From Rhizaria sp. SCN 62-66 (lineage: Eukaryota): a stretch of 20,623 nucleotides of DNA. Under the pieces are notes generated by a model. That model saw only the letters and a program-made list of their open reading frames with translations, was not told the DNA's origin and ran no database searches. This document shows positions 4,001-20,623 of this stretch, one piece after another. The first letter of the stretch is position 1, and each line of letters opens with the position of its first letter. The stretch spans positions 62,001-82,623 of the forward strand of contig MEDY01000224.1 of assembly GCA_001724265.1 (NCBI GenBank). Reading direction: 5' to 3'. Position numbers and translations under genes: made by a program.

Positions 4001-7000
4001 CGCGTGGCGAAGACCTGCCCGGGGACGAGCGCGAGCGCGAGCTCGCCGGAGACGAAAGCATCGTCGCCGTCGCCGTCGTTGTCGCCGTAGCCGGCCTCGT
4101 TGTCGTTGCTGTTGTTGAACGTGGCGTCGAGCGCAGAGCTGCCAGACATGAAGAGCGAGTCGTCGGCGCCAGTGCCGTTGCAGTTGTTGGTCGGCTCTTC
4201 CCAGCGCCAGCCGCCCGCGCCGCCGCCGTTGGCCAGCGTGGACGCCGGCGCGCTCGACGCGTCAAGCCCGCTGGCGTTGGGCAGGGCAAGGGCGCGGTCG
4301 CCGCGCCGCAGCCATGACTCGTCGTCGTTCGCACTCGTAGGGGCGGAGGCGGCGGTGGTGCTGGCGGGGGCCTGCTTGCGCGCCGCGGCGGACGAGGCCG
4401 TGGCGGCGGCGCGGCGACGCGCCTGCACCGCCATCTCAATCGCGCCGTGCGCGATGCGGTTGGCCTGCGTGCCGCGGACGCACGCCGTCACTAATTGATC
4501 CAACCCGATCTCAGCCTCGGCGAGCCACTGCGCCGCGCCGGTCGTCTCGCGCGTGGGGGCGTCAGCGAGGTCGTAGAGGTTCAGCTGCAGCGAGCCGCGC
4601 GCGTGGGGCGCGTACAGCACCGAGAAGGTCGTCGTGAACACGGCCTCGCCGGGGCACAGCGACTGCAGCGCGCCTGCTGGGGCCGCGCCCGGGAGCGCGC
4701 GCGAGGCGAAGCACTGCGACGCGGGCACGCCCGCGTTGCTCGCGGCGCCGGTGGCGATGTTGGGAGTCGTTCCAGCAGCGGCGGCGACGAGCTTGCGCGA
4801 GGCAGCGTTCGGCGACCCGCCCGCGGCGCTCGCGGCGGATGGCTTGGCGGCGGGGGCCGGCGTACCGGGCAGCGGGCCGGGGACGTCACCGTACATGGCG
4901 TCCGTGTGGCCCAGGAAGCGGCCCGCGCGGTCCGCCGTCGAGCGTGCGAAGGCGCCCATGAGCCACAGCGGCAGCGGCGAGACCGGCGACTCGCTGCCGT
5001 GCGCACTCGCCTCGCCGGCAGCGCTGGCCGCCTCGGTGCCCCCGTCGGCCGCGAGCGTGGGCAGCATCGAGTAGGACACGGTGACCGTGAGCAGTCCGGG
5101 CGGGAGCGGCTCGACCACGCACATCGGCATCGGCCGCTGCGACAGCAGCTGCAGCAGCCGCGCCGCGCGCCGCAGCTGCGCCAGCGTCGTCGGCGGCACG
5201 TCGCGCAGCGAGAACTCGCCGCGCGCGTCGCTAACATCGCTCCAGCCGTAGCCGCAGACGACGCTGACGTTGCTGGGCGAGGCCGCGTTAGCCGCCGCGC
5301 CCGCGGCGCCGTCCTCGGGGCTGGGCCGCTTGCCCTCGCCGTCGGCAGCGTCATCGGGCCGGGAGACGGTGAAGACGACGCCGCCGGCCGTGACGCGCGG
5401 GGTGCGGGCCAGCGCCGCGCGCTTGCGCTGCGCCGTGCCGGGCGCCAGCGGCTGCTGCGACTCGGCCAACGCGAACGCGCGCGCAGGCGTGTTCACGGCA
5501 GCTGTCTCGCTCGTCGCGACTGTGATCGCGGCGGCGTCGAGGGGCGTGCCGTCGGGGCGCGCGCGCGGCGTGCGCGCGAGGCGCCGCACGGTGTAGGGCG
5601 TCTGCGGCACGGCCGCGCCGCCGCCGGGCAACGCGAGGCGGCCACCGCTGTAGGCGCTGCCGACGCTGCTGGCGCCGGGGCCGCGGGGCCGCGGCGCGCG
5701 CACCGGCGTCTGCACCACGGCATTGTTATTAACCACGCCGTTGACCGAGAGCGTGACGACGGGGGCCACGAACGCGGGCGCGGGCGCGGGCACGGCGGGC
5801 AGCGCGGGCGGCGGCGGCAAGATCGCGGCGATGCCCGTCAGCGCCGCGGGCGCGAGCCCCCACGCCGCGCTGCTGGCCTCGAGCATGCGCGCCACGTCCG
5901 CGGGCGTGTACAGCGTCGGCGGGGTCAGCGCGGGCACGGACGTCGCGGCGGCCGCGTTGGCTGCGGCGGCGGCGGCGGTGGTGGCGGCGACGGCAGCGGT
6001 GGCCGCGGCGGCCTCGGCAGCCTTCGCGGCGTTGGCCGCGGCCGCGATGGCGTCATTGGCGGCCGCGGCGGCACCGAGCTCGTCGGCCAGCGCCTCAGCC
6101 TCCGGCGCGAGCGAGTTCAGCAGGCCGAACAGCGCGGCGCAGGGCGCGGCGAACACAGGCGGCGGTGCCACCGCGAGCGCGCGCGCACGGCGCACCAACA
6201 CGTCTCCGCTGGCCGCCGCAGAGTGCGGCGCAGAGGCTGAGAAAGCGGAGACCGAGGCCGCGAGCGCGGATTGCGCGTGCGTGCGGACGGAGCCGGCGGG
6301 CGCGTGGCGGGCGAGAGCGGCGACGGCCCACTGCGGCGCGCGCTCGTACACGACGACGGGGCGCGGCGCCGCGGCCGTGTGCGGCAGGAACGCGGCCGAG
6401 AAGGCCGAGACCCAGGTGTCGCGCAACGCCGCGGTGGGGAAGCTCAGCCGCAGGCAGCGCAGCTCGCTCAGCGCGTCCGCCGCGGCCGCAGTCGCAGGCG
6501 AAACGCCGTTGCTGTTGGTGTTGCCATTACTGGCGTCGGCGTCTGCATCTGCGTCGGCGGAAGGCAGCGCGCGGCGGTAGAGCACGGCCACGAGAGCCGG
6601 CTGGCGCGGCACGCGGCCGCGGCGGCGACGAGCCTCTGCAGCGGCCGCGGCCGCGGTCGCGGCGGCCGCATCGCCGCTCTCGGCAGCCGCGGCCGCAGCA
6701 GCGCTGGCGTCGGCGGCATCGGCGGCGTCCTGGTCGGCGGCGTCGGCGTCGTCGGCCTCGGCCTCGGCGACGGCGTCGGCGTCCTCGGAGGCTGCGGCGT
6801 CGTCAAGTGCGTGGCCAAGCTCGGACAGCACGCTCTGCGGCACCGACGCCGCGGCATTTACACCGCCGGCGCCGCCAGAAACAGAGGAGCTAGCGACCGA
6901 GCCGGAGATGGAGCCATTTGCGTCCGCCGCCGCCGCACCAATGGGAGAGAGGACGCCTGCAATGCCCGCGGTGGCCGCGGCGTCGGCGCGCTCCGCGGCG

Positions 7001-10000
7001 GCGAGGCGCGCGAGGCGGGCCTGCGCGGCGAGCAGCGAGAGCATGCCGTCGCCCTCGTCGTCCGCAACCAGCGCGGCGGCGGCGCCGTCGACGCACACGG
7101 CGGCCACGTGCGCGAGCGGCGCGACGCGGCCAGCGGCGAAGGCGGCGTGACGCGCAGGGAACAGCATCGCCTGCAGGGTCGCCTCGGCCTCGGCAGGGGT
7201 CGTCGCCCCAGCCGCACCAGACTTGCTGCTGTTGCTGTGCTTAGCGTTGTCGCCGCGGAGCGAGATGCGCATGAGACGCGCGACGGCCAGCGCGGCGCGC
7301 TCCGAGGCGGCGGCGTCGGCGCCCGGCGCGGGGACGGGGGCCGCCGAGGCGCGCGCCAGGTCCACCGACGTGCTCACAGTCGCGCTCACGTTCGCTGAGT
7401 CAGCGGCAGCAGCGGAGGCGTCGCTGCCACTGCCGCTGCCGCCGAGCTGCGCGGGGAGGCTGAAGCGCGTGCCGGCGACGGCGGACGACGCGGAGCAAGG
7501 CGGACACCACCACAGAGCGCCCAGGTCGACCGCGGCGGCGCCGCCGAGGCGCGCAGCGTCGAGCGTAGCCACGGCCGCGGCCGCAGAGCTCGACTCCGCA
7601 GCCGCCGCCGCCGCCGCAGTCTGGGACTTGGACTTGGTGGTGGTGGCGTTGACCGCGGTGACGAAGGTGGCGTCGGCGTATGACTGCTCGCCCTCGTCGT
7701 CGGTGAAGTCGCCCGCGTCGACGTCGTCGTCGACATCGACATCCAAGGCGTTCGCGCCGGCAGCCGCGGCCGCGGTCTCGGCGGCCACGGCGGCGGCCTC
7801 AGCGGCCGAGGCGCTCAGCGCGGCGGCCGCGGCGGCGCGGGGCAGGTCGCTCGCGCCCGCGGGTGCCGGGTGCGCCGCCAGCGCGGCCAGCAGCGTCTCT
7901 GCGGCGCGGCCTGCGGCGCCCGCAGGGGCAGTGGCGGGAGCCAGGAAAAGGTGCGTCTCGCTCGCCGAGTGCGCGGCGCGCGCGCGGGCCTGCGCGGCGG
8001 CGGCGACGGCGCGCGCCAGAGTCGCGGCGACGGCGCGCGCGGCGACCGAGCGCGCGACAGCGGCCGGTGACCACACGAAGGCGGTGGCGAGCAGCGCGGT
8101 ATTGCTGCTGGCGGCGAGCGCGAAGGCCGACTCGGCGCTCGCGAGCAGCCGCAGCAACACGCGCAGCGGCGACAGCGCGGAGACGGCGGCGTTGCTGAAG
8201 CCCGCAGAGGCAGAGCACTCCGCCTCGCCCCGCGGGAAAGGACCTGATCGCGCCGCAGCAGCGGCGGAGTGGCCGTGATGCCCGTGCTGGCCGATCTGCG
8301 ATTGCGGCTGTGAGGCCTGCGAGGCGGCGGGCAGCGTGGCGAACGAGTCGGACAGAGTCATCGCAAGCAGCGACGACGCCGCGAAGACGCCTCTATCGTT
8401 AGCATCAGCATTAACAGCGCTCGCGTTCATGTTATTGTTAGCGTTGTTGTTGTGATTGTCGGATGTGACAGCGAGCGCGGCCGCGAGCAGAGCGCGCGTG
8501 CGCGCGGGCAGCGGCGCGGCGAGCAGCTCGGCGCCCGCAGCAGCGACAGCGGCGGCGTTGTTAGGACTACTTGCAACGGCGGCGTCGGGCAACGAAGCGA
8601 TGATGGAGCCCTTGATGAGCCACGCGCGCAACAGCGAGACGACAACCGCCGCGGACGCCGCGCCCGGTGCAGCCAAACCGGCAGCGTCACCACCGTTCAC
8701 AGTCAACGCGGTCGAGCTCGCGCTGCCCGCGGCGGCGGCTGCGGCGTCGGAGGTCGCGGGCAGCAAGTAGCGCGCGCCGAGCGAGCCGAAGCTCGCAGGC
8801 ACCGGATCGCACCGGCCCTCGCTCGCTCTGGCGCCGCCGGCGGGTGCAACGGCGGAGGCGGCGGCGGCGGCGGCGGCGGCGGTCTCAGCGGCGTTGGCAG
8901 CGGCGGCCGCGGCCTCTGAGGCAGCGGCATTGGCGGCGGTGACCTCAGCCGCGGCGGCCTGCGCGGCGGCCTCGGCGGCGGCGACGGCGGCCGGGTCCGG
9001 CGCAGCCAGGTAGAGCACTGTACCGTCGGGCGTAACCGTGATGGCGCCCGCCGCGGCCGACTGCGCCGTGGGCGAGGGCGCGGCGGGCGCGGACCGCAGC
9101 AGCAGCGGCGCGTGGCGCACCAGGAGTCCCTGCGCGGCGGCGTCGGCCTCGGCCTCGCAGTCCAACGACAGCGCGCTCGCACCCAGCGCCGAGTCCGCCG
9201 CGGAGGCGCCGTTGCCCGCGGAGGTGGGCACGGCGGCGAGACGCTTGGGCGCGGCGGCCTCGAGGGGCTCGCGCGCGGCGACCGAGGTGGCGGCGGCCAG
9301 GGTAGGGAATAGTGCGTTCTCGCTGGGAAAGACGACCTCGCGTCCCGGCGCAAAGGTGTTATCCGCGCCGTTGGGGACGAAGTTTGAGCCGAAGACGCGG
9401 ACGGCGGAGACGAAGCTGCCCTCGCCGAGCCCGGCGAGCGCGGCAGGCGCGGCGGGCGGCGTAGGCCCCAGCGGCAGCGCGGTGCCGGCCAGCGGCAGGT
9501 CGAGCGCGAGCGGCGTCAGCAGCGGCAGCGTCGCGACAAGGTTGGCGTGGCGCAGCACCGCGGCCGCGCCCGGCACGCGCTGCGCGAGGTACAGGTGGTG
9601 CAGCGCGAGCGCGAGCGCGGCCAGGAACAGCGAGCGGTCCTGGGCGGACGCGAAGTCGAGTGACAGCGCGTACAGCGGCGGCGCGTCGGCGGGCAGGGCG
9701 GCGGCGTTGGCGGGCGCGGGCAGCGGGACGTAGCCGCCGGCCGCGGGGTCGAAGCCCCAGCGCTGCGGCGACTCGGGCGCGCCGGCCACGAGCAGCGTCA
9801 GCGCGCAGTCCTCGGGCACCGCGGGGGAGACCACGAACGGGCGCGGGGCGCGGCCGACGTAGAGCTCGACGATGTCGCGCGGGTCCAGCGGCTTGAGCGC
9901 GCGCAGCGGGGGCGCGGCGGCAGCGGAGTTGGCGTTAGACGCGGACGCTGCAGGGTTGCGGATGGGCGCGAGCCACTCGAACAGCGGCAGCGCGAGCGGG

Positions 10001-12732
10001 TTGGTCACCGGGGGCGGCAGCACGGCGTTGAAGGCCTCGGCAGTGTAGTGCCGCAGCACGACCACGGCGGCGTGCTGCGAGACGCTCAACGGCGCGCTCG
10101 CGGCCGTCGCAGGGGAGACACAGCTACTGCTGCTGGAGCTCATATTAAGGCTGGCATTGGCGTCGGCAGCCGCGGCGGGGGGCGCGAGACGGACCCTGCC
10201 GACCGCCGCCGCCGCGGCCGCCGTGGTCGCCGCGGCCTCCGGCTCGCGCTGGGTCACAGCCACACCGGCGGCGTCGGGCGCCAGCGTCCGCGCGGCGGCC
10301 ACGGCGGCGGCGGCCGCGGCGTCGCCCGGCGGCGTGTAGCGGAGCCCGTAGGCGCGGACGGTGACCGGCAGCCCGCCCGCGTCGGCGAGCGCGGCGCGGG
10401 CGCGCGCGGCCTTGCCGTTGAGCCGCACACGCTGTGCCTTGGCCTGCACGGCGGGCGCGGGCGCCAGCCGCAGCGGCGCCGCGGGGGAGCCCGCCGCAAA
10501 GCGCGATGTCAGTGCCAGAGGGGCACCGGCGCCGGTCGCCGGGTCGAAGCCGGCGCCGGCGCCCAGCAGCCACTCGTGCAGGAACAGCCCCGAGGCAGCG
10601 ATGCCGGCAGCGCGCGCGGCTGCGGCGGGCGCGGCGGCGGGCAGCGCGGCGGCGGGCACGGGCGCGGGCTGCGAGAGCGCGTACCCGGCCCAGAGCCCGC
10701 CGGCGCGCTCGGCCAGCGCGGCCTGCAGCGGCGACGGCGCGGGCAGCGCGGGCGGCGGCGACGGCGGCGACAGGCGCAGCGCCTCGGCCGTGTCCTCGAT
10801 GAGCGCACTGTGCGTCGCGGCGGCGGACACGTAGTCGATGTTGACGTCGATGCGCTGCGCGACGATAAAGGGTGTGGGCACGCCACCCGCGACCGGCGCG
10901 GACGCGGGCGGGGTCGCGGGCCGGGGCAGCGCCGTGTACTTGATGCTCAGCGGCAGCGGCGTCGCGCTGGCCACGAGCGCCGCGACCGACTGCGGCGCGC
11001 GGCGCGGGTAGTCCCCGGCAGCGCCGTACCATTGAGGATGCTGCGACTGCTGCTGCTGCTGCTGTTGTTGCTGGAGCTGCTGCGAGGCGTACGGACTGTT
11101 GCTGTGTGTTTGCTGCAGTTGCTGCTGTTGCAGCGCGCCCGGCGTCGCAGGCCCCGCCGCCGCCGCCGTGTTGCCCGCGCTGGCGCTGTCGGGGCTGGAC
11201 AGGGCGGCGCGGGCGGTGCCGGTCGACTGCGGGGACAGAGACGTGGCCAGCACGGTCGGCGACACGCGCAGATGCTCCATGTTGGACGACGATGTCGCAG
11301 TGGCCGCGACGGAGCCCGACTGGGTACCCCAGATGCCCGTCGAGGCCGGGTTGATGGGCGTTGTGGTAAAGCCGAGCGGGGAAATGGCCGAGACGCGGGG
11401 AACGTCCGCAGGCCGCACGCTCCCACCGGCGCTGGCGTTGCCGCTGGGGGACGAGTGCGGACCCATGGGGTCGTTCCCCGCCAGCGCACTATGGGCCGCG
11501 GGCGCCGCCAGTGGGCCGTGCGCGGGCGAGTGCGCGCGCGAGGGGCCCGTGCTGATGGGCCGGTGTGCGAGGACACGCACCGTCACGGCCTGCACGCCGC
11601 CGGGCTGCACGCCAGCTGCGCCCAGCGACACGGGCGCGCGCGCGGGGCTCGTCGCGGCCGCGGCCGCGGTGGAGCTGTTGAGTTTGGCGCGCAGCGCGGC
11701 GAGCTTGGCGCGGCGCGCGTCGGCGGCGTCGCCGAACGAACCCATGCTCGCACTAGCCGTGCTGGCGCTGGCGTTGGCGGCCGCGGGCGTCATCGCAAGT
11801 GTAGTGCTGTTGCCGCCGTAGAACCCGCTCTGCGACAGCGTGTTGTTATTGTTGTTACTATAGCGCGGGGCGGGGGTGGCGTAGATGGAGGGTCCCGGCA
11901 GCTGCGTGCCGTCGAGCGACTGCTCCCAGGCATCGCTCTGGCGGAAACCACCGTGGTTGAGCCCGCTGTCGCTCGCAGCGGTCGCGGCGGGCTGCTGGTG
12001 CTGCTGGGCGGGCGTCGCGGGCACGGGCGCAACAGCAGTAGGAGCAGCGGCGGCAGCGGCAGCGGCGGGCGCGGGATTGGCGGCCTCGTTGAAGAGGACG
12101 CGTTGGAACTGCACCTGGGGCCGCTCGACGGCGACGATCTTAAACAGCGACAGCGCCCACATGTCGCGCGCGGCGGGCGACGGCGCCTGCAGGTCGATGC
12201 AGACGTAGCCGGGCGCGGCGGCGTTAGAGTCCTTGCGCTGCACGACCAGCGTCACCCAACAGTCGGTGACGCCCTCGGGGGGCGTTTCGCGGACGGCCTC
12301 GGTGGGCAGCGCGTAGCGGCGGCCTTGCGAGGCCGTGGTCTGGATGTGGCACCAATGGAGCCCGCCGAGGATGGTGGCGGTGCCCGCGGCGATGCCCTCG
12401 TCGGCGTAGCGCCGCGAGTCGGCCACGGGCGTCACGGTGAGCTGCCCCGTGATCGCGTGTAACGCGGAGAAGTTGCCGCAGTAGATGCCGACGATCTGCG
12501 ACGTGGCAAACGAAAAGGGCTTCTTGTCCGGCAGCGACTCGCCCTTAAGCGCGCCGCCGCGGCCGCTGGCGTTGCCCTCGAAGGCGATCGAGGCGGACGC
12601 CGTCTTGACCTTGCCGATGCCCGCCGTGGCGGGGGACAAGGCGTGGGAAGGCTTGGTGAGTGTCGTGCGCGCAAACTGCGCCCGGCGCTGCAGATGCTGC
12701 ACGGCGCGCGCAACGGGGTCGGCGGCGCTCAT
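1033..12732 (-). CDS. Giant Ala-rich multi-PH-domain / C2-domain protein (~3,899 aa), single uninterrupted ORF
   Basis: 11.7 kb open frame with strongly GC-ending codons. The ORF track starts at a TTG (12918), but the first 62 codons look like pyrimidine-rich UTR. The ATG at 12732 (MSAADPVARAVQHL) coincides with the start of GC-rich coding composition. PH-like and C2-like motifs are recognisable. The frame ends in TAA at 1035-1033, which overlaps a possible splice donor (see findings). Confidence 0.9.
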   Translation of the reverse strand: MSAADPVARAVQHLQRRAQFARTTLTKPSHALSPATAGIGKVKTASASIAFEGNASGRGGALKGESLPDKKPFSFATSQIVGIYCGNFSALHAITGQLTVTPVADSRRYADEGIAAGTATILGGLHWCHIQTTASQGRRYALPTEAVRETPPEGVTDCWVTLVVQRKDSNAAAPGYVCIDLQAPSPAARDMWALSLFKIVAVERPQVQFQRVLFNEAANPAPAAAAAAAAPTAVAPVPATPAQQHQQPAATAASDSGLNHGGFRQSDAWEQSLDGTQLPGPSIYATPAPRYSNNNNNTLSQSGFYGGNSTTLAMTPAAANASASTASASMGSFGDAADARRAKLAALRAKLNSSTAAAAATSPARAPVSLGAAGVQPGGVQAVTVRVLAHRPISTGPSRAHSPAHGPLAAPAAHSALAGNDPMGPHSSPSGNASAGGSVRPADVPRVSAISPLGFTTTPINPASTGIWGTQSGSVAATATSSSNMEHLRVSPTVLATSLSPQSTGTARAALSSPDSASAGNTAAAAGPATPGALQQQQLQQTHSNSPYASQQLQQQQQQQQQSQHPQWYGAAGDYPRRAPQSVAALVASATPLPLSIKYTALPRPATPPASAPVAGGVPTPFIVAQRIDVNIDYVSAAATHSALIEDTAEALRLSPPSPPPALPAPSPLQAALAERAGGLWAGYALSQPAPVPAAALPAAAPAAAARAAGIAASGLFLHEWLLGAGAGFDPATGAGAPLALTSRFAAGSPAAPLRLAPAPAVQAKAQRVRLNGKAARARAALADAGGLPVTVRAYGLRYTPPGDAAAAAAVAAARTLAPDAAGVAVTQREPEAAATTAAAAAAVGRVRLAPPAAAADANASLNMSSSSSSCVSPATAASAPLSVSQHAAVVVLRHYTAEAFNAVLPPPVTNPLALPLFEWLAPIRNPAASASNANSAAAAPPLRALKPLDPRDIVELYVGRAPRPFVVSPAVPEDCALTLLVAGAPESPQRWGFDPAAGGYVPLPAPANAAALPADAPPLYALSLDFASAQDRSLFLAALALALHHLYLAQRVPGAAAVLRHANLVATLPLLTPLALDLPLAGTALPLGPTPPAAPAALAGLGEGSFVSAVRVFGSNFVPNGADNTFAPGREVVFPSENALFPTLAAATSVAAREPLEAAAPKRLAAVPTSAGNGASAADSALGASALSLDCEAEADAAAQGLLVRHAPLLLRSAPAAPSPTAQSAAAGAITVTPDGTVLYLAAPDPAAVAAAEAAAQAAAAEVTAANAAASEAAAAAANAAETAAAAAAAASAVAPAGGARASEGRCDPVPASFGSLGARYLLPATSDAAAAAAGSASSTALTVNGGDAAGLAAPGAASAAVVVSLLRAWLIKGSIIASLPDAAVASSPNNAAAVAAAGAELLAAPLPARTRALLAAALAVTSDNHNNNANNNMNASAVNADANDRGVFAASSLLAMTLSDSFATLPAASQASQPQSQIGQHGHHGHSAAAAARSGPFPRGEAECSASAGFSNAAVSALSPLRVLLRLLASAESAFALAASSNTALLATAFVWSPAAVARSVAARAVAATLARAVAAAAQARARAAHSASETHLFLAPATAPAGAAGRAAETLLAALAAHPAPAGASDLPRAAAAAALSASAAEAAAVAAETAAAAAGANALDVDVDDDVDAGDFTDDEGEQSYADATFVTAVNATTTKSKSQTAAAAAAAESSSAAAAVATLDAARLGGAAAVDLGALWWCPPCSASSAVAGTRFSLPAQLGGSGSGSDASAAAADSANVSATVSTSVDLARASAAPVPAPGADAAASERAALAVARLMRISLRGDNAKHSNSSKSGAAGATTPAEAEATLQAMLFPARHAAFAAGRVAPLAHVAAVCVDGAAAALVADDEGDGMLSLLAAQARLARLAAAERADAAATAGIAGVLSPIGAAAADANGSISGSVASSSVSGGAGGVNAAASVPQSVLSELGHALDDAAASEDADAVAEAEADDADAADQDAADAADASAAAAAAAESGDAAAATAAAAAAEARRRRGRVPRQPALVAVLYRRALPSADADADADASNGNTNSNGVSPATAAAADALSELRCLRLSFPTAALRDTWVSAFSAAFLPHTAAAPRPVVVYERAPQWAVAALARHAPAGSVRTHAQSALAASVSAFSASAPHSAAASGDVLVRRARALAVAPPPVFAAPCAALFGLLNSLAPEAEALADELGAAAAANDAIAAAANAAKAAEAAAATAAVAATTAAAAAANAAAATSVPALTPPTLYTPADVARMLEASSAAWGLAPAALTGIAAILPPPPALPAVPAPAPAFVAPVVTLSVNGVVNNNAVVQTPVRAPRPRGPGASSVGSAYSGGRLALPGGGAAVPQTPYTVRRLARTPRARPDGTPLDAAAITVATSETAAVNTPARAFALAESQQPLAPGTAQRKRAALARTPRVTAGGVVFTVSRPDDAADGEGKRPSPEDGAAGAAANAASPSNVSVVCGYGWSDVSDARGEFSLRDVPPTTLAQLRRAARLLQLLSQRPMPMCVVEPLPPGLLTVTVSYSMLPTLAADGGTEAASAAGEASAHGSESPVSPLPLWLMGAFARSTADRAGRFLGHTDAMYGDVPGPLPGTPAPAAKPSAASAAGGSPNAASRKLVAAAAGTTPNIATGAASNAGVPASQCFASRALPGAAPAGALQSLCPGEAVFTTTFSVLYAPHARGSLQLNLYDLADAPTRETTGAAQWLAEAEIGLDQLVTACVRGTQANRIAHGAIEMAVQARRRAAATASSAAARKQAPASTTAASAPTSANDDESWLRRGDRALALPNASGLDASSAPASTLANGGGAGGWRWEEPTNNCNGTGADDSLFMSGSSALDATFNNSNDNEAGYGDNDGDGDDAFVSGELALALVPGQVFATRVNVPLSQPRAVHAAWKTAIAAYTRSDRAAAAATEAAAASAALAASAGKAAQLPGHVSRARAKRLRDMSRALSLGAFSVSLGCLFTPVDPLVLGAKRLVAGLFTVDDESPVPAPAAPGTATAVAAVAAPVAAPATAAAAPAPTPAALAAAEAVAVAAAAAAAAATAAAAAAAAAAAVNSPEPAAAAAAPASAPAKGETTALVAVEPDSTALVEKTDKKEKKDKKAKKDKKDKRSSRDRDRSSQRDSQRDDASTTRSHANTAGDNEPSQLRSRLRHAVRRGGLLLGPSGTPVGPKGQPLPLSDARLEQMTAGYEVLKFSHKNGKASRRVLAYHPRLRCLYWCDDAKTRDAVRAGRVEPAADKCIAVLNIGAVARGRKTHVFTANTIPNSIHPALCVSVLQFPPDPNASANNNNATNVTSANSSVDLDNAASPAIGGHRALTVAISPSGARNNGGAGSVAASPANGTVSTTTAMVPATPSNANGSNSTNSEFGDSGASVAATPGGSAGPQQPQKGLMSRLRARLNGTEAAPRRTPNMKSLDTPGASAERATPTLHERGAVTAVSSGAAAGGEMRGHSLFAVGSGYVLDGDALVHCESTVVIGAPTPKEARSLDVAFATSTDAAEFFMSLATLVAYYQWIEQMRARLLLRKQQQDAAAAAAAAAAAASSNANESENAAGGSPPGSASRRRLAPASSRPRGVPAPIAEEDGGSGGDAAAALAAVGQEAADAAEARRARARAQAQADAQAELAAHRANAKGNDAGAEADDKDDNDAANRRESVFAPTLHSNMPPPPQRTPHQTPRAQPSQPKGSGSPPAYNHATPVAAAAAPELADYGGDEDVVVAPTPLPAAAAKGKASAASSAKATPSNNARGAGGASTPSLLTVSTPSLAPANLRGAGAGAEAVEPSSLEPSPASSDVDLSQSINDTDNENNDDDVDDDDDDDKFESVQRIPEPAPRKAGGAAAAAPAAIIAQDDDDDDPFDLDISFDDFE
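2098..3090 (-). other. PH-like domain 4 (best conserved; PLC/Num1-Mcp5 type)
   Basis: MTAGYEVLKFSHKNGKASRRVLAY..LYWC ... CIAVLNIGAVARGRKTHVF ... LCVSVL ...(about 200 aa insertion)... RSLDVAFATSTDAAEFFMSL. It has a basic K-x(n)-RR beta1-beta2 loop, as in phosphoinositide-binding PH domains. Confidence 0.8.
3307..3366 (-). repeat. Coding imperfect 9-bp repeat encoding a Lys-rich patch (KKEKKDKKAKKDKKDK)
   Basis: Repeated tccttcttg-like units on the + strand, followed in the protein by RSSRDRDRSSQRD. Confidence 0.8.
3764..5095 (-). other. C2-like domain (copine-like) with large insertions
   Basis: LLTVTVSYSMLP ... RFLGHTD ... AVFTTTFSVLY ... SLQLNLYD ... WLAEAEIGLDQLV ... NVPL ... LGAFSVS resembles the copine C2 pattern 'GrTE ... 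P.F...f...Y ... L.f.vYD ... lG.....L..l'. Confidence 0.6.
6383..7525 (-). other. Degenerate PH-like domain 3 of the giant protein
   Basis: Dispersed blocks GALWWC ... VAPLAHVAAVCVDG ... LVAVLYR ... LRCLRLSFPTAALRDTWVSAF. The last block is a typical PH beta7 plus C-terminal helix. Confidence 0.5.
9594..10400 (-). other. PH-like domain 2 of the giant protein, split by Ala-rich insertions
   Basis: LDPRDIVELYVGRAPRPF ... EDCALTLLV ... ALSLDFASAQDRSLFLAALAL repeats the same pattern, with Phe in place of the helix Trp. N-terminal strands are tentative. Confidence 0.6.
11042..11133 (-). repeat. CAG/CAA poly-glutamine tracts within the giant protein
   Basis: (ctg)n/(ttg)n runs on the + strand translate to QQQQLQQ...QQLQQQQQQQQQSQ. 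Confidence 0.9.
12122..12710 (-). other. PH-like domain 1 (PLC/Num1-Mcp5 type) of the giant protein
   Basis: FATSQIVGIYCG ... DCWVTLVVQ ... VCIDLQAPSPAARDMWALSLFKIV follows the 'I..v..G ... c.s.v ... LDL.a.s...rd.W...L' pattern of this PH subtype, including the Trp of the terminal helix. Boundaries approximate. Confidence 0.7.
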
Positions 12733-13711
12733 CAGGAGGCAGGAGGAGACGCGGAGGGCGCGGCCGGGGGAGCGGCTGAGTGTGTGTGGGGACGACGAGG
12801 GTGGCCGGGGAAAGGGGAGGCACGCGCGATGGTGAAGGGCTTCTGCCGTGGGGGAAGAGAGAAGGCTGGAGGAAAAAAGATCGATTTCAGGGAACATGTG
12901 AGAGAGAGGCAAGTTCAACGGCAGTGCTAGCAGGGAGGTTTACAAGGTGTTCATTGAGTGGCAGACTGATGAGAGGATGAGTCGAGGCGCTAGTTGCAGG
13001 ATATCCAGGAACCGGCCCATATTTCAAGCTCTTTGAGTTGGAAGACCATTGCCCTAGAAGCGGAGGTTCCGGTGTAAAAAGCATTAGCAAACGTGATTCC
13101 TAGAAACATCTATGTGATACACTAGTGTTACGATTGGCGAGTACTGGACACTGGAAAGATGCAGCTGGCTCGAGGATGGTTCTAACTAGGTCGGTTGTGC
13201 TGAACCTGTCATGAGACCCACACCAGTTTGTAAGCAAGTTACAGAGATGGCGACATTTGAATATCAAATACACTCCACGGGTATTCTTTCAATTAATTTT
13301 CAGATATAGATACGTAGAATAAGACCAACCAAGCAGCGTTAAAGTAGAGGCCAACCGCGGTTTCTTTTCTGGCCTAGCTTTTTTTTTTTCGGCCCATGCC
13401 CGATCGGCCGTCGTTGTCCGGCCGACTGCGAGCTACTTTTCCATCTTCATGCGCACGTGTATGATCGTCAATAGTGTGAGAAATCCGCTTTTCGCGAAGA
13501 TTCAAGTTGTAATACGTTCATTATGTTATTATATTTCCTATGCACATCGTATAGCTTGCCGCATGACACTGTGCTTTTGACCACTCACTGACTTCTTTGC
13601 CACCTCTCGCTTAACCCTCCCAGCCAGACCGATTGACAGCAAAGCTCTGAACGTCTATCCACACGCTTGACCGTTAGATAACGCGCTTTATTTGCGCTGA
13701 CACCCCGCTAA
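12733..13711. promoter_or_regulatory. Divergent (head-to-head) intergenic region; probable bidirectional promoter plus 5' UTRs
   Basis: 979 bp between two outward-facing ATGs; AT-rich, with an 11-T run (13379-13389) and a GGCC-rich island (13348-13425). Confidence 0.6.
13459..13623 (+). other. Possible 5'-UTR intron of ASNSD1 (165 nt)
   Basis: GTATGA donor; CTTAAC about 10 nt before a CCCTCCCAG acceptor, the same arrangement as in the RhoGEF intron. Confidence 0.45.
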
Positions 13712-16700
13712 ATGTGCGGTATCGGCGCCCTAGTCGCGTCCTCGGTGCGTCTGACAAGCCGTGCCGCGGCCGCATTGAACCTCGCGCTCGCGCAGCAGCG
13801 CCGCCACAACGTTAAGACAACGTACAACGCACGCCGCCGCGCCGCTGCCTGGCGCGCCGCCACTGAGGCTGCGACCGCCGCAACAACGTCGACACCCGTG
13901 ACTGCAGCCGCGTCTCACGGTGCAAACTCAAGCTGTGCGAGTTCAAGTGTCAATGAGCGTGTGGACGAGCGTGCGTGCGTGTGCGATGTGAGCACTGGCG
14001 TGTGGTGCGTCACATGCGTTGCGGCCAACGCGGTTGCGCTTGCGGAGACGCTGCTTCCGCGCGGACCTGACGCAGCTGGCTTTGTGTCATTCGCTCACAA
14101 CGCTGCCCTTCAAAGCAGCAGTGCAGCGGCGATTCCTGAGACTACATCGAGCGAGATGTCATCGAGTTCCGTAGAGCTTAAGGCTGGGCCCCGGACTGTA
14201 GCGCTTAGGCCTACAACAGCAATGCCTTTGGAGCAGGCACGCGCGGCACTCTATAGCAATGTGTCAGCTGCAACGAGTCCTAATTTCACCGAAGCACAGA
14301 AGACGACGCCTACAGAAGGTATGTGCAGCTCTGTGCGTGCGCCGCCGCTCTCGCTGTTGGCATCGGTGCTTTCTCTCCGCGGTGATGGCGTCCCTGTGAC
14401 ACAACCCTATTCTATTGGAGCTAACAGCCACTCTGCCGCAGAGTCATCAACACAGTCTAGCGAGCCGCTGTGGCTGTGTTACAACGGCGAGGTGTTCGGC
14501 GGCCCTCTGTGCCCGCCATCGGGGGGCTCCGACACTGCGACCGTTGCGGCCGCTCTTGCCACAGCAGCCGCACTGTCTGCACCTTAGTCTGCGGCTGACG
14601 CCGGCACCGGCGCAGACTTTCCGACTGCAACTGGTCCCGCGCTGGCCTCCGCAGCGGCGCGCGCGTTGTCGGCGAGCGAGGGCCCATTTGCTCTCATCCT
14701 GGCCGAGCCTGCGCTGGGGCGGCTTGTGGCGGCGCGCGACAGGCGCGGGCGCCGGTCGCTGCTGCTCGCGCTGGGGCCGCGGTGCAATCGAACCAAGAAC
14801 AACAAAGCTGGGGCCGATAGTGATAACGACTTCAGTGATGACGAAGATTATGATGATGATGATGGAGAATTGGTTTCAGGCATCACCTATTTTGGCGCAG
14901 CGCTGTCTTCGGCGGCCTTTGACGTGTCGTCGCCGGCGTTACCTGAACACAACTCACACGCGACGGCATTTGACTTGAGCTCGCTGTCGCGTGCACATCG
15001 GTTTGCGAGGTGGATTGAACTGCCATGCACTGGTTTGTTCTCACTTCAATTCACGAAGCGGAACAACAATTACTCCAGTGATACACCGGCTGCCAGCATT
15101 TCTTGTTTTAGCGGGAACAACACTCAAGACAACGACAAAGATGGTTGTGTTGAGATCGATTTTGTGCCTTGGCTGTCTTCAACCCCGACCGCATCTAACA
15201 CAGACACAGACTCTGCCGTTGAGAACGTTGACGCTGCCAACACAGTGACCTCCGAGTTACCTTTGTCGCCAGCCCCGCTGCCGCCTCTGTTCAGAGCGTA
15301 TCCTCACTTGCCCGCGTCCCCCGCTGCTGCAGTTAGTACACTCCCTGCTGCATTGCTTCCGACCGCACGCGCTCTCATCACGACACAAACGAACCCCAAG
15401 CTGAACAACACGACTGGTAACACCAACAACAGCGCTGACGGCACCGCTGTGGAGAATGCGACTGTGGGGGGCGCGGCGGCGACGGTGTTCCTGTCGCTGC
15501 TCGCGCGTTCTGTTGCGCGCCGTGTTGCTCTGCAAGACCCTTTGCAGACGCAGGAAGAACACATCAAAGGTGCCGCGAGTGATGCCGTGTGCAACTTTCA
15601 GCCGGCATTGCCGCTGCTGTCCGACGCTGGTTCGCGTCCAACTTTGATCGCATCTTCCTCTCCCAACACGACAGCGTCCTCTGTGTCCAGTTCGCAGTTT
15701 TCTGACGTATGCTCGCTGCGCTCTGATTCCCAGCCTCAGCAACTGCTCGCCGGCAGCGAGTTCGGCCAGTGCGGCCGCGTCGCTGCCGTCGACGCCACCG
15801 CGGCCCTGCGCCCCGCGCGCGTGGCCGTGGCCTTCAGCGGCGGCATCGACTGCTCTGTGGTGGCGCTGCTGGCACACTACGCCCTGCCGGCGGGGGAGCC
15901 CATTGACCTCATCTCAGTCGCTTTTCAGGGCGATGTTGACGCAGACACGGTACGTGGACTGTCTCGACGCGAAAGCCGTTTAGTTTATCATATCTGCCGT
16001 TGTTTTTGAGATGTATTTAATTTCATTTTCCTTCGTCTATTTTGCTTTCTTTTGTATTCGAGTGCAGATCGATGCTGCGACGCCGGATCGTCTCGCTTCG
16101 ATCTTGGGTCTCCAGGAGCTGCGCACAGCGGCTCCAGAGCGCCCCTGGCGGTACGTTTATTTCTGTTATGCGCAACAAAGTAAATCTGCGTTGATACGAA
16201 CTTCTTGACGCTTAATATGCCTTTTCATTTTTTTACCTGTGTATGTTAAACTTGTTTCTCATGTTTAGCTTGATCAAGGCCAATCTTACGACCGCGGGCG
16301 TTTCGTCCTCCCGCGCCCGCGTGCTCTCGCTGCTGCGGCCACACGCCACGGTGATGGACTTTGGCCTCGCCTCAGTGCTGCACCACGCTGCGCGCGGACA
16401 GGGCGCGCTACACTGCATCTGTCCGCCTGCTCCCAACGCCACCACTACAGCCAAGACGACATCGGCAACATCAGTGTCGGGTAACGGGCATCTATCGGGT
16501 TGTCCGTTGGCCGACCTTGCTCACAGCCACTTTGAGCCTGCTGCTGTTGATCACTGCCTGTCGACAGAGACGAAGAAAACCAAGGCTAACTGTGCGTTTG
16601 AGCTCGCTGCAGCAGCCGCTCTGCGCCCGCGTTCTGGGACGGCAGCCGCCGCCGCTGCCGCGCCCCGTCCCGGCGCAGACCCCGCTCTCCGCTTCTCTCC

Positions 16701-18477
16701 TGCGGACACTGGCAATAGTAGCGGCACTGCGACTGGTACGGTGATAATCGCGAAGCTGCCTATGCCTCAGCGCACCGCTCTGCGGCGTGCCGTTTCCACC
16801 GCGTCCTCGATCGCGCCCCTGCGCGAGCGGTTCGGGTCGGAGCGCGCGGCCGCCGCGGAGGCCGAGGCGCGGGCGCGTGCGGAGGCGGCAGCGGAGCTAA
16901 TTGGGGTGACTGTGGGCGCGCTGGCAAGGGCCGCGGGGCTGCCCGGGGGATTTGCGGGGCTCGGCGCATATGAAGATGAACAGGACAACAACAAAAACAA
17001 CGCGAGGCTGACTACTGCCACGACCGATGATGCAAGTGCTCATGGTAATGAGACTGCTCCCATAAGTGACTGTGAGTTTGATAGGATTGATGTGATGTAT
17101 CGCTCGCAGGCACGCGTTCTCCTCACGGGCTCAGGTACGTAACAAAACGCATCTCACAAACGTCTTTGAAATACCACCAAATACGTCATTTGTATGCATT
17201 ATTGATTTTGTGGTGTTCACGCTTTCACCGAGACAATTTGATGTTTGCTTTATTGCTATCTACTTTTCCCAGGCGCCGACGAGCAGCTTGGCGGCTACGG
17301 ACGGCACCGCACGACATGGATCCGAGCGCAGCGGCCCGACGCCACCGCGCCTCCATTCGCGAGTGCAAACGCTAATTTAGGCTCAAGCGTTGGTTCTAGC
17401 ACTGATAGGGCTGACGCAAGCGGTGCCGCGGCGCGTGATGACGACGGCGACGGGGAAGGCGAGGGCGCGGGGGCAGCCGCCGTGGCTGCGCTGGCGCTGC
17501 ACGATCCTCAGAACTTTGGCCAGATCCGGGAAGGTTTCAAGCTCCTCTTCCCAGATGGACTGGATGGTATGGCCGATACTCGTTTGTTCGATAGCTTATT
17601 TTTGTATTTGCCGTTTTTTTTCAATGTAGTTATTGTTATCTCACCTCAACACATCTGTTTCCGTTTTTTTTTTCACACAGAATCGTCCCTGTCTCCCGAC
17701 GCGCTGGCGCTGCTACGGCGCCGCCGCGCCCAGCGCGCGCTGTCGCTGCAGCTGCGGCACGACGTGTCTCGCATTTGGCTGCGCAATCTCGGCCGCGACG
17801 ACCGTGCAGTGGCGGCGTGCGCGCGCGAGGCCCGCAGCCCGTTCCTCGACGAGGGCGTCATGGCCTTTTTGGCGCGCTTCCAGGACGGGGCGCCCGGGGA
17901 CGCATGCAGCGGCAAGACTATCTCGGAAAGGACTGAAAACGACACGAACGGCAGCAATACTGCGCTGTTTGTCGATGCAGAGGGCGATGAAGGGTTAATG
18001 GCGTTTGTTCGCGACATTTTCGCAGCCATTAATAATGCGTGCAATGAAGACAGTTGCAATGATCGTGCAATTGTAGCGCATACTACGTCCGAGCCTGAGT
18101 CTGCGACCCCGACTGCTTCTGCGACTGTAACTGTGACTACAGTTGAACACTCTTGGCCTGTCCTGCCTTTACGCGCTTTGTGCGACCCCCGCCTGCCCGC
18201 GGGCGCCGGGGACAAACAGCTGCTGCGCCTGGTCGCGCGCGCGCTCGGTCTGCGCGGCGCGGGGCGGCTGGTCAAGCGCGCGATGCAGTTCGGGACGCGG
18301 TTGGCGGATAAAGAGGCTGACGCGACCGCGACTGTGGGGCCCGAGACGCCGCTGGAGAGGCTCGTGAACCCGCGTTTTGTGGGTGAGGCGGCCGCGGCGA
18401 TGGGCGGCAAGAGCAGCAAGGACGGTAAAAATATGAAGAGCAACAAAGGGGGAACTAACAAGGCTGCTGTGCAATGA
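13712..18477 (+). CDS. ASNSD1: Asparagine synthetase domain-containing protein 1 (ASNSD1/YML096W family); join(13712..15949,16068..16150,16269..17134,17273..17566,17681..18477), 1,426 codons including the final TGA and one internal TAG at codon 292
   Basis: Ntn amidotransferase motifs MCGI, RGPD, VLSLRG..QP, YNGEVF, SDT, EGPFA, RD..GRRSLL. Synthetase motifs VAFSGGIDC, PIDLISVAF, PDR, TVMD, LLTGSGADEQLGGYGRH, RNLGRDDR, EARSPFLDE, GDKQLLR, KRAMQFGTR. Splicing at four GT-AG introns joins the motifs in frame (4,278 nt, divisible by 3). Confidence 0.92.
15950..16067 (+). other. ASNSD1 intron 1 (118 nt, phase 0)
   Basis: GTACGT...T-rich...TGCAG; joins DADT|IDAATPDR. Confidence 0.9.
16151..16268 (+). 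other. ASNSD1 intron 2 (118 nt, phase 2)
   Basis: GTACGT...TTTAG; joins PERPWR|LIKANL. Confidence 0.9.
17135..17272 (+). other. ASNSD1 intron 3 (138 nt, phase 1)
   Basis: GTACGT...TTTTCCCAG; removal rebuilds the conserved TGSG|ADEQLGGY motif. Confidence 0.95.
17567..17680 (+). other. ASNSD1 intron 4 (114 nt, phase 1, in frame and stop-free)
   Basis: GTATGG...very T-rich...TTTCACACAG; composition matches the other introns rather than the flanking exons. Confidence 0.8.
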
Positions 18478-19151
18478 AGCATTGGGGAAATGTTGAAACA
18501 CAAATGAATACGGTAACAATTAAGTGCTGTGCCTATATAGTGAATACACATATACTAGATGATATTTTTCACTTTAGACGTTGACACAGGTCTCGCACAG
18601 AAGATTCACAAGTGTGGCTTTTACGAAAGCATTCAAGAAGCTCAATTAGGATATCCCACTTGTCAGCGTTGTCAATAGACGGATATCAATACTATTGACA
18701 GTCAACATAGTTCAATCGCGTTTTTGCATGATGTGACACAACAGATGATTAAGAGGATCCATTGACTCAATGGTTCTCGAGTTCCATCATCACCGACTGG
18801 AGATTGGCACTGGTTCCTAAAAAATCGGCCGGCTGGTAGGCCGGATCGACGAGGACAATCCAGAGGCAAACTTTGGGTTCTATCTTGTCAAAATATTCGT
18901 ATTTGTGTTCGCCTATTAGCGTAGAGATACGCATATTGTACAGAGAGCTTAATGAATATTCAAATCTTCAAATCATATCTCCTGATAAAGTCGTATTTGA
19001 GCTGCTATGCCCTATTTCGAGCGACCCATTTTGCATGACCCTCCTCTAACCCCATTTGCTGTTTCAACCTCCCTGCTCTCTTCCAATTCTCACTGTTTCA
19101 TTGCTGTCATTGGCTGTGCATGTTACTCCGCTTCTGCAGGACCGCGTCTCA

Positions 19152-20623
19152 ATGGCTGATACCGCGGGCAAATCGCAGAGCTCGCGCCCCGGCGGGTTCC
19201 TCAACATGCCCGATCTCCGCACGCTGACGGCTCCCCAGGCCGCGGACGCGCTCGTCAAGACGGAGCAGTTCTACGTCCACAAGGGTCTCCGCGTCATGGA
19301 CGAGATCCGCCGCCGTCTCCTGCTCCACTCTGAGCGCGGCGACGAGATCCTGCCTGAGAACGTCATCAACGAGATCTTCCTCTCAACCGAGCAGCTCTAC
19401 GATTTCAACTCCGGCCTGCTCAAGAAGCTCGAGGAGGCCCGCTGGGAGGGCACCGAGAGATTCCTCTGCACGCTGGGCGAGATCATCGACCCGCTACTGC
19501 CCTACCTGCGTCTTTACACCGAGTTCGTGCTTAAGTCCCGCGCTTCCATCTCCGCCGTGAGGGAGCGTAACGAGAAGAGCAAGACCTTCCGCAGTTTCCT
19601 CGAGATCAACGAGAAGGTCGCCGGCACCGACCTCTTCACGCTCCTCTCCTCTCCCATGAACCGTTTCCCGCAGTACATCACGTTTCTCGGCGCAATTCAC
19701 TCCGCGCTGCCCCCCGACCACCCGGCCGCGGTGTCCCTGGGCGCCACCATCAACAAGGTCCAGGGCATCATGGACTCCATTTCTTCCCGCGCTGAGAATA
19801 CCATCCGCCGCGAGCGTGTCGTGCAGCTGCAGCAGAACTTTTTCAAGAACGACGTTGCGCTGGTTGACCCCACGCGCCGCTTTTACCGCCAGGGCCTCGT
19901 CTACGTCGTCAAGGACGCGCGTCGCAAGGAGGAGCACTCCATGACGCTCTTCAACGACTGCATTCTGCTCTCGCAAAAGGGGCTTTTCGGCGTTTCGGTC
20001 AAGCACGTTGTGCAGCTCGCCGGTATCGGGCTCTCGCTCTCGCCCTCCGCGGCGGGCGTCGAGAACTCGTTCAAGCTCACCACCTCGCTCGGCGGCGTCA
20101 AGGAGGAGTATTGGCTTCAGGTATGTTTCTGAACGAAACGCACATATTTCGTATAATATCTGGGCACTTTTCGAAATTATTTCATTTTATAATCCACATT
20201 TTGTTGCTGTTCTTATATCTTATTTGAATTTTTATTCTTACCTGATGACATTTTGATGATATGTCCCTCATTTTCGTCTTACACTGGCCGTTCTTAACTC
20301 CCTAGGTCGAGTCTGACAAGCTGCGCGCGCGCTGGCTGAACGACATCGTCGAGGCCGTCTACTCCTACTACTCCTGGGATCTCGACTCCGCGGACCCAGC
20401 CAAGCGCACCGGCACCGGCGCGGGCGCCACGGGTACCGGTACGCGTGCCCAGTTCAACCTGCAGGTGCTGCACCCGTCCGAGTTCGGCAAGATGATCCGC
20501 AAGAAGAGCTACGACGAGAAGAAGCTCATCCCCAAGGTCGAGCCCACGTTCTCGCCCGAAGTCATGGCGCTTACCGTGGACCGCCGCCGCAAGGCCGCCG
20601 CCACGGCCGCCGCGGCCGCGCCC
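19152..20623 (+). CDS. Dbl-family Rho guanine nucleotide exchange factor (DH-PH), 3'-partial; join(19152..20120,20306..>20623)
   Basis: DH domain (~19230-19797): LVKTEQFYV, IFLSTEQLYDFNSGLLKKLE, LGEII...LRLYTEFV, LLSSPMNRFPQY. PH domain: PTRRFYRQG, LFNDCILL, NSFKL, and after the intron VESDKLRARWLNDI. The frame stays open to the window end. An additional upstream coding exon cannot be excluded. Confidence 0.9.
20121..20305 (+). other. RhoGEF intron (185 nt, phase 0)
   Basis: CAG|GTATGT...AT-rich...CTTAAC branch-like motif...CCCTAG|GTC; removal completes the PH C-terminal helix. Confidence 0.93.

Follow-up and report, generated by a model that had tools for sequence, protein, structure and literature searches.

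A lone in-frame TAG in an otherwise intact ASNSD1-like gene of a GC-rich eukaryote, possibly a young nonsense mutation

The window, which is the whole stretch of DNA analysed here (20,623 nt of contig MEDY01000224.1, Rhizaria sp. SCN 62-66), carries an ASNSD1-like gene, a neighbouring gene for a DH-PH RhoGEF (RhoGEF/PH family by Atlas) and a large gene on the minus strand. We modelled the ASNSD1-like gene as five exons with 1425 codons and a TGA stop, in which a TAG is the sole internal stop (Table 1). ASNSD1 is widely conserved among eukaryotes. Exon 1 contains the MCGI start, RGPD, NGEVF, SDT, EGPFA, RDRRGRRSL and the PP-loop AFSGGIDCS, and the sequence joined at the exon 3/4 junction agrees with the family consensus G.GADETLGGY.RHR. 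The features of a class-II amidotransferase were found (Cys2 nucleophile in MCGI, RGPD, NGE[IV]F, SDT, GP[FYW]A and RD..GRRS), as were those of the Asn_synthase (PP-loop) domain (SGGxDC, GADE..GGY, NLGRDDR, P[FY]LDE, GDK..LR and KRA.QFG.R). Pfam PF00733 (Asn_synthase) scored 26.8 bits on 17245-18474, above the cut-off of 21, and 17.1 bits, under the cut-off, on 14588-16008. In the Atlas, clusters under the name 'Asparagine synthetase domain-containing protein 1' matched one of the homologues (P0008) with scores of 0.93-0.94, and the nearest relative (P0006), a protein fragment that begins past the site of the TAG and is encoded on a 7,447-bp JGI contig, showed 49% identity in the aligned stretch. 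The source organism recurs in wastewater-type metagenomes of several studies (bioreactor, wastewater and activated sludge), and public assemblies include a 57.9-kb contig of it. A block NGEVFGG.LCPP.G.SDT is common to trypanosomatid-like homologues; we rejected a trypanosomatid placement from this block, which is too short, and a DH-PH RhoGEF lies next door.

Table 1. Positions in the window of the ASNSD1-like gene model, its in-frame TAG and the surrounding hairpin.
Feature	Position	Strand	Remarks
Exon 1, 746 codons	13712..15949	+	Donor GTACGT at 15950
Imperfect 65-nt hairpin enclosing the TAG	14564..14628	+	Fold z -1.89; marginal; function not indicated
In-frame TAG, codon 292 of the ASNSD1-like gene	14585..14587	+	Sequence, frame, matching contigs, loop alignment
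Exon 2, 83 nt, encodes ...TPDRLASILGLQELRTAAPERPWR	16068..16150	+	Family consensus APDR..A....EL...R.WRLV
Exon 3, 866 nt	16269..17134	+	Exon 3/4 junction restores LLTGSG/ADEQLGGYGRHR
Exon 4, 294 nt	17273..17566	+	Pfam Asn_synthase on ORF 17245-18474
Exon 5: RNLGRDDR, SPFLDE, GAGDKQLLR, KRAMQFGTRLA	17681..18477	+	TGA stop at 18475-18477

The TAG and its flanks read ...GCA CCT TAG TCT GCG GCT..., and the translation of 13712-16011 contains one '*' only, at residue 292, where the uninterrupted coding sequence of an ASNSD1-type gene is broken. An earlier note on this DNA had described a gene intact in every other respect, and we found the same. ORFs 13712..14587 and 14666..16009 lie in one common frame (offset 954 nt); the TAG falls between SDT and EGPFA, in a variable loop of the N-terminal glutamine-amidotransferase domain; the 1133 codons that follow it (3.4 kb, spliced) contain no stop or frameshift; all family motifs are kept when aligned column for column with 10 homologues; and all four introns are GT-AG. 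The note had also placed the TAG in an Ala-rich insertion, which the alignment contradicts. With the TAG counted as one residue, the spacer from SDT to GP[FYW] is 48 residues long, the modal length (4 of the 10 homologues; range 32-53). Trypanosomatid-like homologues have L, M or T at the site, and a gap also occurs among the homologues. A spacer of 48 fits a point change within a residue codon.

We compared the site with contigs assembled from other runs. The results showed no other letter than those of the window across the TAG, either in the X2/X3 contig (13400-14834) or in the X4 contig (14306-14755), which comes from a different study ten years on. An ORF of 291 residues, closed by the TAG, was found on seven contigs from three public sources (JGI/IMG, Logan and ENA), which may not all be independent of one another. 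Because contigs of other runs carry the TAG without a difference and seven contigs carry the ORF that it ends, the base-call error that the earlier note had allowed for is refuted, and the TAG is genuinely present in the DNA of multiple samples. Across four runs, diversity was very low, with one difference in 5.5 kb.

Among proteins of 410-1306 aa, we looked for a read-through form and found none; the search returned only the piece after the TAG (P0002) and one weak match to exon 1 (P0003, E 2.2e-5). Among 5.8 billion clusters, no close relative was found for exon 1, the RhoGEF or the N-terminal piece, the matches being the window's own proteins and P0003 only. A query with P0005 for the N-terminal piece of the relative returned only the window's own protein (8000 candidates scored, probably mostly Ala-rich low-complexity proteins). 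We also sought more DNA of the source organism or of the P0006 organism in collections of metagenome, viral and genome contigs, and obtained nothing usable; the genome contigs gave only three unrelated loci (L001-L003), bacterial and asparagine-synthase-like. In the polyA RNA run X5, the sole RNA run compared, no contig covered 14448-15315 and spliced contigs were absent. Its contigs retained introns, one (16120-16272) spanning intron 2 and another (17423-17603) extending 37 nt into intron 4. Because the TAG is uncovered and the contigs include introns, X5 is informative neither on the TAG nor on splicing.

We counted codons in the three genes of the window. The results showed that TAG occurs once in 5755 codons, in one gene of the three. 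In the same 5755 codons, the rarest sense codons were ATA (2) and CGA (3) and the rarest ending in G was AGG (11), so every G-ending sense codon is used at least ten times as often as TAG. From positional base composition, about 44 TAGs would be expected, 14.8 in the ASNSD1-like gene and 28.8 in the large gene. GC3 in the genes of the window is 0.66-0.88; the large gene (3899 codons from MSAADP) has a GC3 of 0.88 and ends in TAA. The earlier claim that this gene and the RhoGEF contain no TAG or TAA thus stands for in-frame internal codons and fails for the terminal TAA of the large gene. Only two terminators are visible in the window, this TAA and the TGA of the ASNSD1-like gene, and they are compatible with TAG either as a stop or as a sense codon. 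An ORF at 155-520 ends in TAG (518-520). We rejected the ORFs in 1-700 as evidence for a TAG-terminated gene; since none of the eight matches any Pfam family, there is no usable TAG terminator. A tRNA search of the window found none. In these three genes, then, there is a single in-frame UAG at a variable position, as opposed to the many UAGs at conserved positions that mark a reassignment. The evidence in the window leans against established UAG reassignment; a very rare sense codon or gene-specific readthrough is compatible with it. Among the papers listed by a literature search for code changes reported in wastewater eukaryotes, none carried the word 'wastewater', and those listed for ASNSD1 were unrelated.

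We also examined the surroundings of the TAG for recoding signals. The 76 nt centred on it folded with the z score given in Table 1 (10 of 200 shuffles as good), and the downstream 120 nt alone gave a z of -0.24. Two perfect 8-bp stems lie at the TAG, at 14565 and 14586; exon 1 as a whole has five, against 1.59 in block shuffles (maximum 7). We rejected the hairpins as a signal, as runs of Ala codons are self-complementary and the fold is only marginal. Rfam matches at gathering score were absent from the window, and the only two sub-threshold ones near the TAG were at chance level (E 0.036 and 0.8). The context CCU UAG UCU GCG GCU contains no stimulatory 3' sequence of the readthrough type and nothing of the CARYYA type; neither the 3' context nor the downstream structure of programmed readthrough was found. 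The adjoining 12-mers CTGTCTGCACCT and TAGTCTGCGGCT share 8 of their 12 letters position by position, which could reflect an LSAP/xSAA duplication; we did not treat this match as significant.

Several explanations of the TAG compete with a nonsense mutation. It may be decoded, a possible reading to which we give a low but appreciable probability: either as a very rare sense codon genome-wide, with UAA and UGA as terminators, or by gene-specific readthrough or editing (e.g. A-to-I, giving UGG), it would then yield a 1425-residue enzyme. The rest of the gene is perfect, with all motifs, four clean introns and 1133 codons intact past the TAG, which favours this reading, as do the presence of the stop in all seven contigs with no open allele found, its place inside a marginally stable hairpin and in a variable loop that should accept any residue, and the poor sampling of the lineage. 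The use of TAA and TGA only, with TAA despite a GC3 of 0.88, is also like that of the rhizarian exLh (UAA 56, UGA 15; excerpt of PMC5304391), although two terminators carry little weight. However, the excerpt gives 384 in-frame UAGs in 71 genes for exLh, against one in three genes here, and the genome prefers codons ending in G, among which even the rarest sense codon far outnumbers TAG. No readthrough-type 3' context, stable downstream fold or tRNA in the window supports decoding, and known UAR capture in trypanosomatids accompanies AT-rich genomes (excerpt of PMC12153298). In particular, we regard it as rather unlikely that UAG is decoded as a nascent, extremely rare sense codon or is efficiently read through, with gene ends left to UAA and UGA. 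It is very improbable that the same cells also contain an intact copy, the TAG being either a heterozygous allele or an error of sequencing or assembly. The comparison at the site used contigs, which drop minor variants, and depths were low (5-7x), but the independent X2/X3 and X4 assemblies agree exactly, and the seven contigs from three sources have the same TAG-ended ORF with no longer form on record. A balanced heterozygous allele is unlikely, as some assemblies should have retained the open allele.

It is likewise improbable that the TAG is spliced out or skipped, whether within a short GC-rich intron, within a euglenid-type nonconventional intron or by a bypass from CCU (codon 291) to CCG 12 codons downstream. 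The five clear introns of the window (four in the ASNSD1-like gene and one in the RhoGEF) are 114-185 nt long, with GTACGT (three times), GTATGG and GTATGT as donors, and the four of the ASNSD1-like gene are 33-38% GC. As the intron profile of this genome we used a GTAYGK donor, a YAG acceptor after a T-rich tract and these ranges of length and GC. The earlier note had seen no GTA-type donor between NGEVF and the TAG and nothing intronic about the site, and both observations were borne out: the GT sites there are GTGCCC, GTTGCG and GTCTGC only, a second GTCTGC beginning on the G of the TAG itself. Four frame-keeping GT-AG candidates do cover the TAG (45-168 nt, 64-74% GC, donors GTGCCC, GTTGCG and GTCTGC twice), and one of 45 nt (14543-14587) ends in CCTTAG; all four fail the profile, and the 45-nt candidate would remove the conserved helix after SDT. 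A 72-nt candidate (14562-14633) matches the Euglena nonconventional intron signature N3-CDG...CH'G-N5-6/R with base-paired ends (excerpt of PMC12501133), its CAG and CTG being paired in the minimum-energy fold. However, in-frame candidates with paired ends cover 46-79% of the coding nucleotides in five control stretches, and a mean of 43 candidates with the signature lie over any exon 1 codon. The signature, seen in this candidate and in others around the TAG, is therefore non-discriminating. On the side of removal, P0006 departs from the family sequence right after ...IAIAF, which suggests that intron positions differ among relatives. Against splicing and skipping alike, any removal would cut the SDT-to-GP[FYW] spacer to 35 or fewer residues, whereas the modal length is 48. 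The bypass over the hairpin was rejected: one Pro codon in a stretch of 15 is no more than chance predicts, and CCU and CCG require different tRNAs. We know of no cytosolic translational bypassing in eukaryotes.

The best explanation, with a probability of about 0.5, is a lineage-fixed nonsense substitution, which would make the gene a very young pseudogene or null allele. A single-base substitution would have turned a residue codon into the TAG, in a variable loop on the surface of the amidotransferase domain, and would by now be fixed or nearly so in the lineage, which is almost clonal and belongs to an undescribed GC-rich eukaryote. With the standard code, translation would end after 291 residues, so that the amidotransferase domain would lose its end and the synthetase domain would be missing altogether; re-initiation is unlikely because the first in-frame ATG after the stop is in exon 3. 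Too little time would have elapsed for further damage to the gene. Given the very low diversity, a mutation in the ancestor of the lineage would show up in every sample, and since the 1133 downstream codons hold no second lesion, a pseudogene would necessarily be very young. Both termination at the TAG and the recency of the event are what we infer. For the nonsense reading, TAG behaves like a stop in the coding sequence of the window, and the known UAR reassignment in Blastocrithidia is tied to falling GC (excerpt of PMC12153298), as against the high GC3 here. Against a young pseudogene, the five exons keep every family motif with no second lesion, and ASNSD1 had evidently been kept under selection in the lineage, given the identity to P0006. 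No gene in the window ends in TAG, and TAA ends the one with a GC3 of 0.88. The stop is carried by 7 of 7 contigs, and no functional allele is known.

If the TAG is a nonsense mutation, the gene is an ordinary young pseudogene or null allele, and the case mainly warns against reading a new genetic code into a lone in-frame stop. A decoded TAG would mean that a GC-rich, so far unsampled eukaryotic lineage has either undergone a rare UAG-only code change or recodes a stop in mid-domain. The lineage could even stand midway in codon capture, a stage that comparisons of known reassignments have not revealed according to the excerpt of PMC12153298. Nascent decoding of UAG, if true, would be an early UAG capture in a GC-rich genome, seen in no described reassignment.

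Stop-codon readthrough in viruses and animals has characteristic motifs, fungal A-to-I editing turns UAG into UGG, and adenosine deaminases favour the triplet U-A-G. The locus resembles these systems in having a UAG within an ORF that continues in frame, and differs in the absence of a CARYYA-type context and of significant downstream structure. With exLh, in which UAG encodes Leu, and Iotanema spirale, in which it encodes Gln (excerpt of PMC5304391), it shares an in-frame UAG, UAA and UGA at gene ends and an obscure protist host known only from mixed samples; unlike the many UAGs at conserved Leu positions in exLh, the one here is at a non-conserved position. Blastocrithidia also has in-frame UAGs inside conserved genes, but its AT-rich genome has reassigned all three stops and uses them at per-cent frequencies, with no intermediate stage known (excerpt of PMC12153298), whereas the genes here are GC-rich and TAG is nearly absent. 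Nonconventional introns occur in euglenids and hemistasiids (excerpts of PMC12501133 and PMC12621601), and the stretch spanning the TAG can likewise pair its ends and carries the CAG...CTG signature; in contrast, such a signature arises by chance over much of the coding sequence here, and the host has a DH-PH RhoGEF and no established euglenozoan affinity. Unitary pseudogenes and null alleles differ from the locus in that it has no second lesion in 3.4 kb and no known intact allele or paralogue, and its loss of function is presumed. It resembles them in its lone in-frame stop within an otherwise intact gene, carried in every sample's DNA at a codon that encodes a residue in homologues, in a window whose coding frames otherwise lack TAG.

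The TAG at 14585-14587 lies in the context GCA CCT TAG TCT GCG GCT, and two ORFs share one frame, 13712..14587 (291 aa, beginning MCGI) and 14666..16009. Direct translation of 13712-16011 yielded one '*', at residue 292. We constructed an ASNSD1-like gene model from the sequence; its four introns (114-138 nt, 33-38% GC) have GTACGT (three) or GTATGG donors and YAG acceptors. The spliced frame comprised 1425 codons ending in TGA, with the TAG as sole internal stop, and family motifs were restored across exon junctions, as in LLTGSG joined to ADEQLGGYGRHR and ...PDR...ELRTAAPERPWR joined to LIKANL (consensus APDR...EL...R.WRLV). Because sequence, frames, translation, gene model and rebuilt motifs agree, the earlier note's description of a single in-frame TAG is borne out. 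Two adjacent 12-mers at 14573-14596, CTGTCTGCACCT and TAGTCTGCGGCT, agree in 8 of their 12 positions and yield LSAP and then xSAA; they may stem from an ancient tandem duplication, the TAG then matching a Leu codon, a resemblance not significant alone.

Coordinates of features in the window
Feature	Position	Strand	Remarks
ASNSD1-like exon 1	13712-15949	+	sequence-based model
ASNSD1-like exon 2	16068-16150	+	sequence-based model
ASNSD1-like exon 3	16269-17134	+	sequence-based model
ASNSD1-like exon 4	17273-17566	+	sequence-based model
ASNSD1-like exon 5	17681-18477	+	sequence-based model
Large Ala-rich low-complexity gene	1033-12918	-	3899 codons; 70-79% GC; GC3 0.88; ends TAA
Pyrimidine-rich tract	13560-13640		sequence
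Pyrimidine-rich tract	19040-19140		sequence
Pyrimidine-rich tract	upstream of 12732	-	sequence
Stop-to-stop frame	155-520	+	121 codons

Pfam matched the C-terminal ORF to Asn_synthase at 26.8 bits (cut-off 21), and the stretch 3' of the TAG scored 17.1 bits, under the cut-off. When 1.84 billion representatives were searched in full with HMMER, 435 matched at E<=0.001, and only the two self pieces reached E<=1e-30. The non-self matches were long proteins starting MCGI that share with the window gene RGPD, NGE[IV]F, SDT, GP[FYW]A, RD.LGRRS, SGG.DC, GADE.LGGY, NLGRDDR, P[FY]LDE, GDKR.LR and KRAIQFG.RIA. One homologue, P0008, groups with Atlas clusters named 'Asparagine synthetase domain-containing protein 1' (scores 0.93-0.94). 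Because of the Pfam match, shared motifs and cluster names, we identify the gene, judging by sequence, as an expanded ASNSD1-type gene rich in low complexity, with the TAG in its N-terminal amidotransferase domain. The nearest relative, P0006 (JGI/IMG, 7,447-bp contig), showed 49% identity in the aligned part and is known as a protein fragment only, its first residue 8 before EGPWA, a start that a stop, an intron or the end of the contig may explain. Another homologue, P0007 (EukProt, 2739 aa), belongs to the trypanosomatid-like group with which the protein of the window has the LCPP block in common. It runs about 1600 residues beyond the normal ASNSD1 C-terminus, through sequence of intergenic look and into other genes, as would be expected had the gene been modelled with a code that has few stops or none.

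The window derives from a metagenome, and 13 of 14 listed sequencing runs hold at least part of it. We compared contigs from four runs with the window. Runs X2 and X3, from different studies and years, had contigs, depths and loose ends identical row for row; they probably represent a single data set deposited twice and were counted as one source. Their contig (13400-14834) and that of X4 (14306-14755), from another study ten years later, showed 0 differences from the window. Over 5.5 kb in the four runs, one difference was listed, G>A at 15441 in the polyA RNA run X5. The exact 291-aa ORF ending at the TAG occurred on 7 contigs (JGI/IMG, Logan, ENA) and the post-TAG piece on 4 in the protein collection. 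Given these identical contigs and the recurrent TAG-ending ORF, a base-call or assembly error is refuted. X5, the one RNA run, gave no contig across the TAG. Its contigs at 16120-16541 and 17423-17603 contained intron 2 in full as well as 37 nt of intron 4, with spliced joints absent from the listing, indicating that the X5 material at the locus is unspliced RNA or carried-over DNA.

The neighbouring genes are sharply unlike in composition, the ASNSD1-like and RhoGEF genes (13712-20623) having about 60% GC and GC3 0.66-0.81 beside the large gene. Each of the three start codons has a long pyrimidine-rich tract 10-90 nt upstream; these tracts end in AG and look like 3' splice acceptors, of 5'-UTR introns or trans-splicing; an RNA contig starting at 13660 carried no extra leader. 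The frame at 155-520 ends ...SVCGCC followed by TAG, recalling a prenylated small-GTPase tail, and had no Pfam match at E<=1.

The most economical reading, with a probability of about 0.5, is a recent nonsense substitution that would have hit a variable-loop codon, reached fixation in a lineage close to clonal and been too young for further decay. On present evidence the lesion is of an ordinary kind; the gene is new and the eukaryote carrying it unsampled. Balanced heterozygosity at the site is unlikely, and a second allele that stayed hidden is highly improbable, since the TAG-ending ORF recurs and no read-through version was found among proteins of 410-1306 residues in the collection. That unusual splicing or bypass removes the TAG is very unlikely. 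Four frame-keeping GT-AG pairs between NGEVF and EGPFA could remove the TAG, but their GC content is 64-74% and their donors are GTGCCC, GTTGCG and GTCTGC (twice), unlike the AT-rich, GTAYGK-donor pattern of the five clear introns in the window (including the RhoGEF intron, GTATGT...CCCTAG). The sole candidate of protein-plausible size (45 nt, 14543-14587) would remove the conserved helix after SDT. If the TAG is taken for one residue, 48 residues separate SDT from GP[FYW], as in 4 of 10 homologues (range 32-53), which a point change in the codon of a residue would predict. Because the NGEVFGG.LCPP.G.SDT block is akin to trypanosomatid-like homologues, the euglenid nonconventional-intron signature, taken from the available part of PMC12501133, was also tested. 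In-frame candidates with paired ends were present (e.g. 14562-14633); equivalent chance candidates covered 46-79% of five control coding stretches and a mean of 43 signature candidates lay over any codon of exon 1, so the signature is uninformative at the TAG.

Decoding of the TAG, as a rare sense codon or by readthrough or editing, is possible but doubtful. The earlier note's sense-codon idea is favoured by the visible terminators, TAA and TGA, although two terminators carry little weight, by the TAA belonging to a gene with GC3 0.88, and by the otherwise flawless ASNSD1-like gene. A 65-nt imperfect hairpin surrounds the TAG (z -1.89; matched by 10 of 200 shuffles), the 120 nt downstream gave z -0.24, Rfam returned nothing relevant, and the window contained no tRNA. 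TAG occurred once in the 5755 codons of the three window genes, where the rarest sense codons were ATA (2) and CGA (3) and the rarest G-ending one AGG (11), G- and C-ending codons being strongly preferred. Since base composition by codon position would give 14.8 TAGs in ASNSD1 and 28.8 in the large gene, in-frame avoidance of TAG is similar in strength to that of TAA and TGA. The bold reading, that UAG capture is beginning in a GC-rich genome, is unlikely and would be notable if true. In contrast to the single TAG here, the available part of PMC5304391 gives 384 in-frame UAGs in 71 genes for the rhizarian exLh, which reads UAG as Leu and is the model for a UAG-only change. In trypanosomatids, according to the available part of PMC12153298, known UAR reassignment goes with AT-richness and no intermediate stages are seen.
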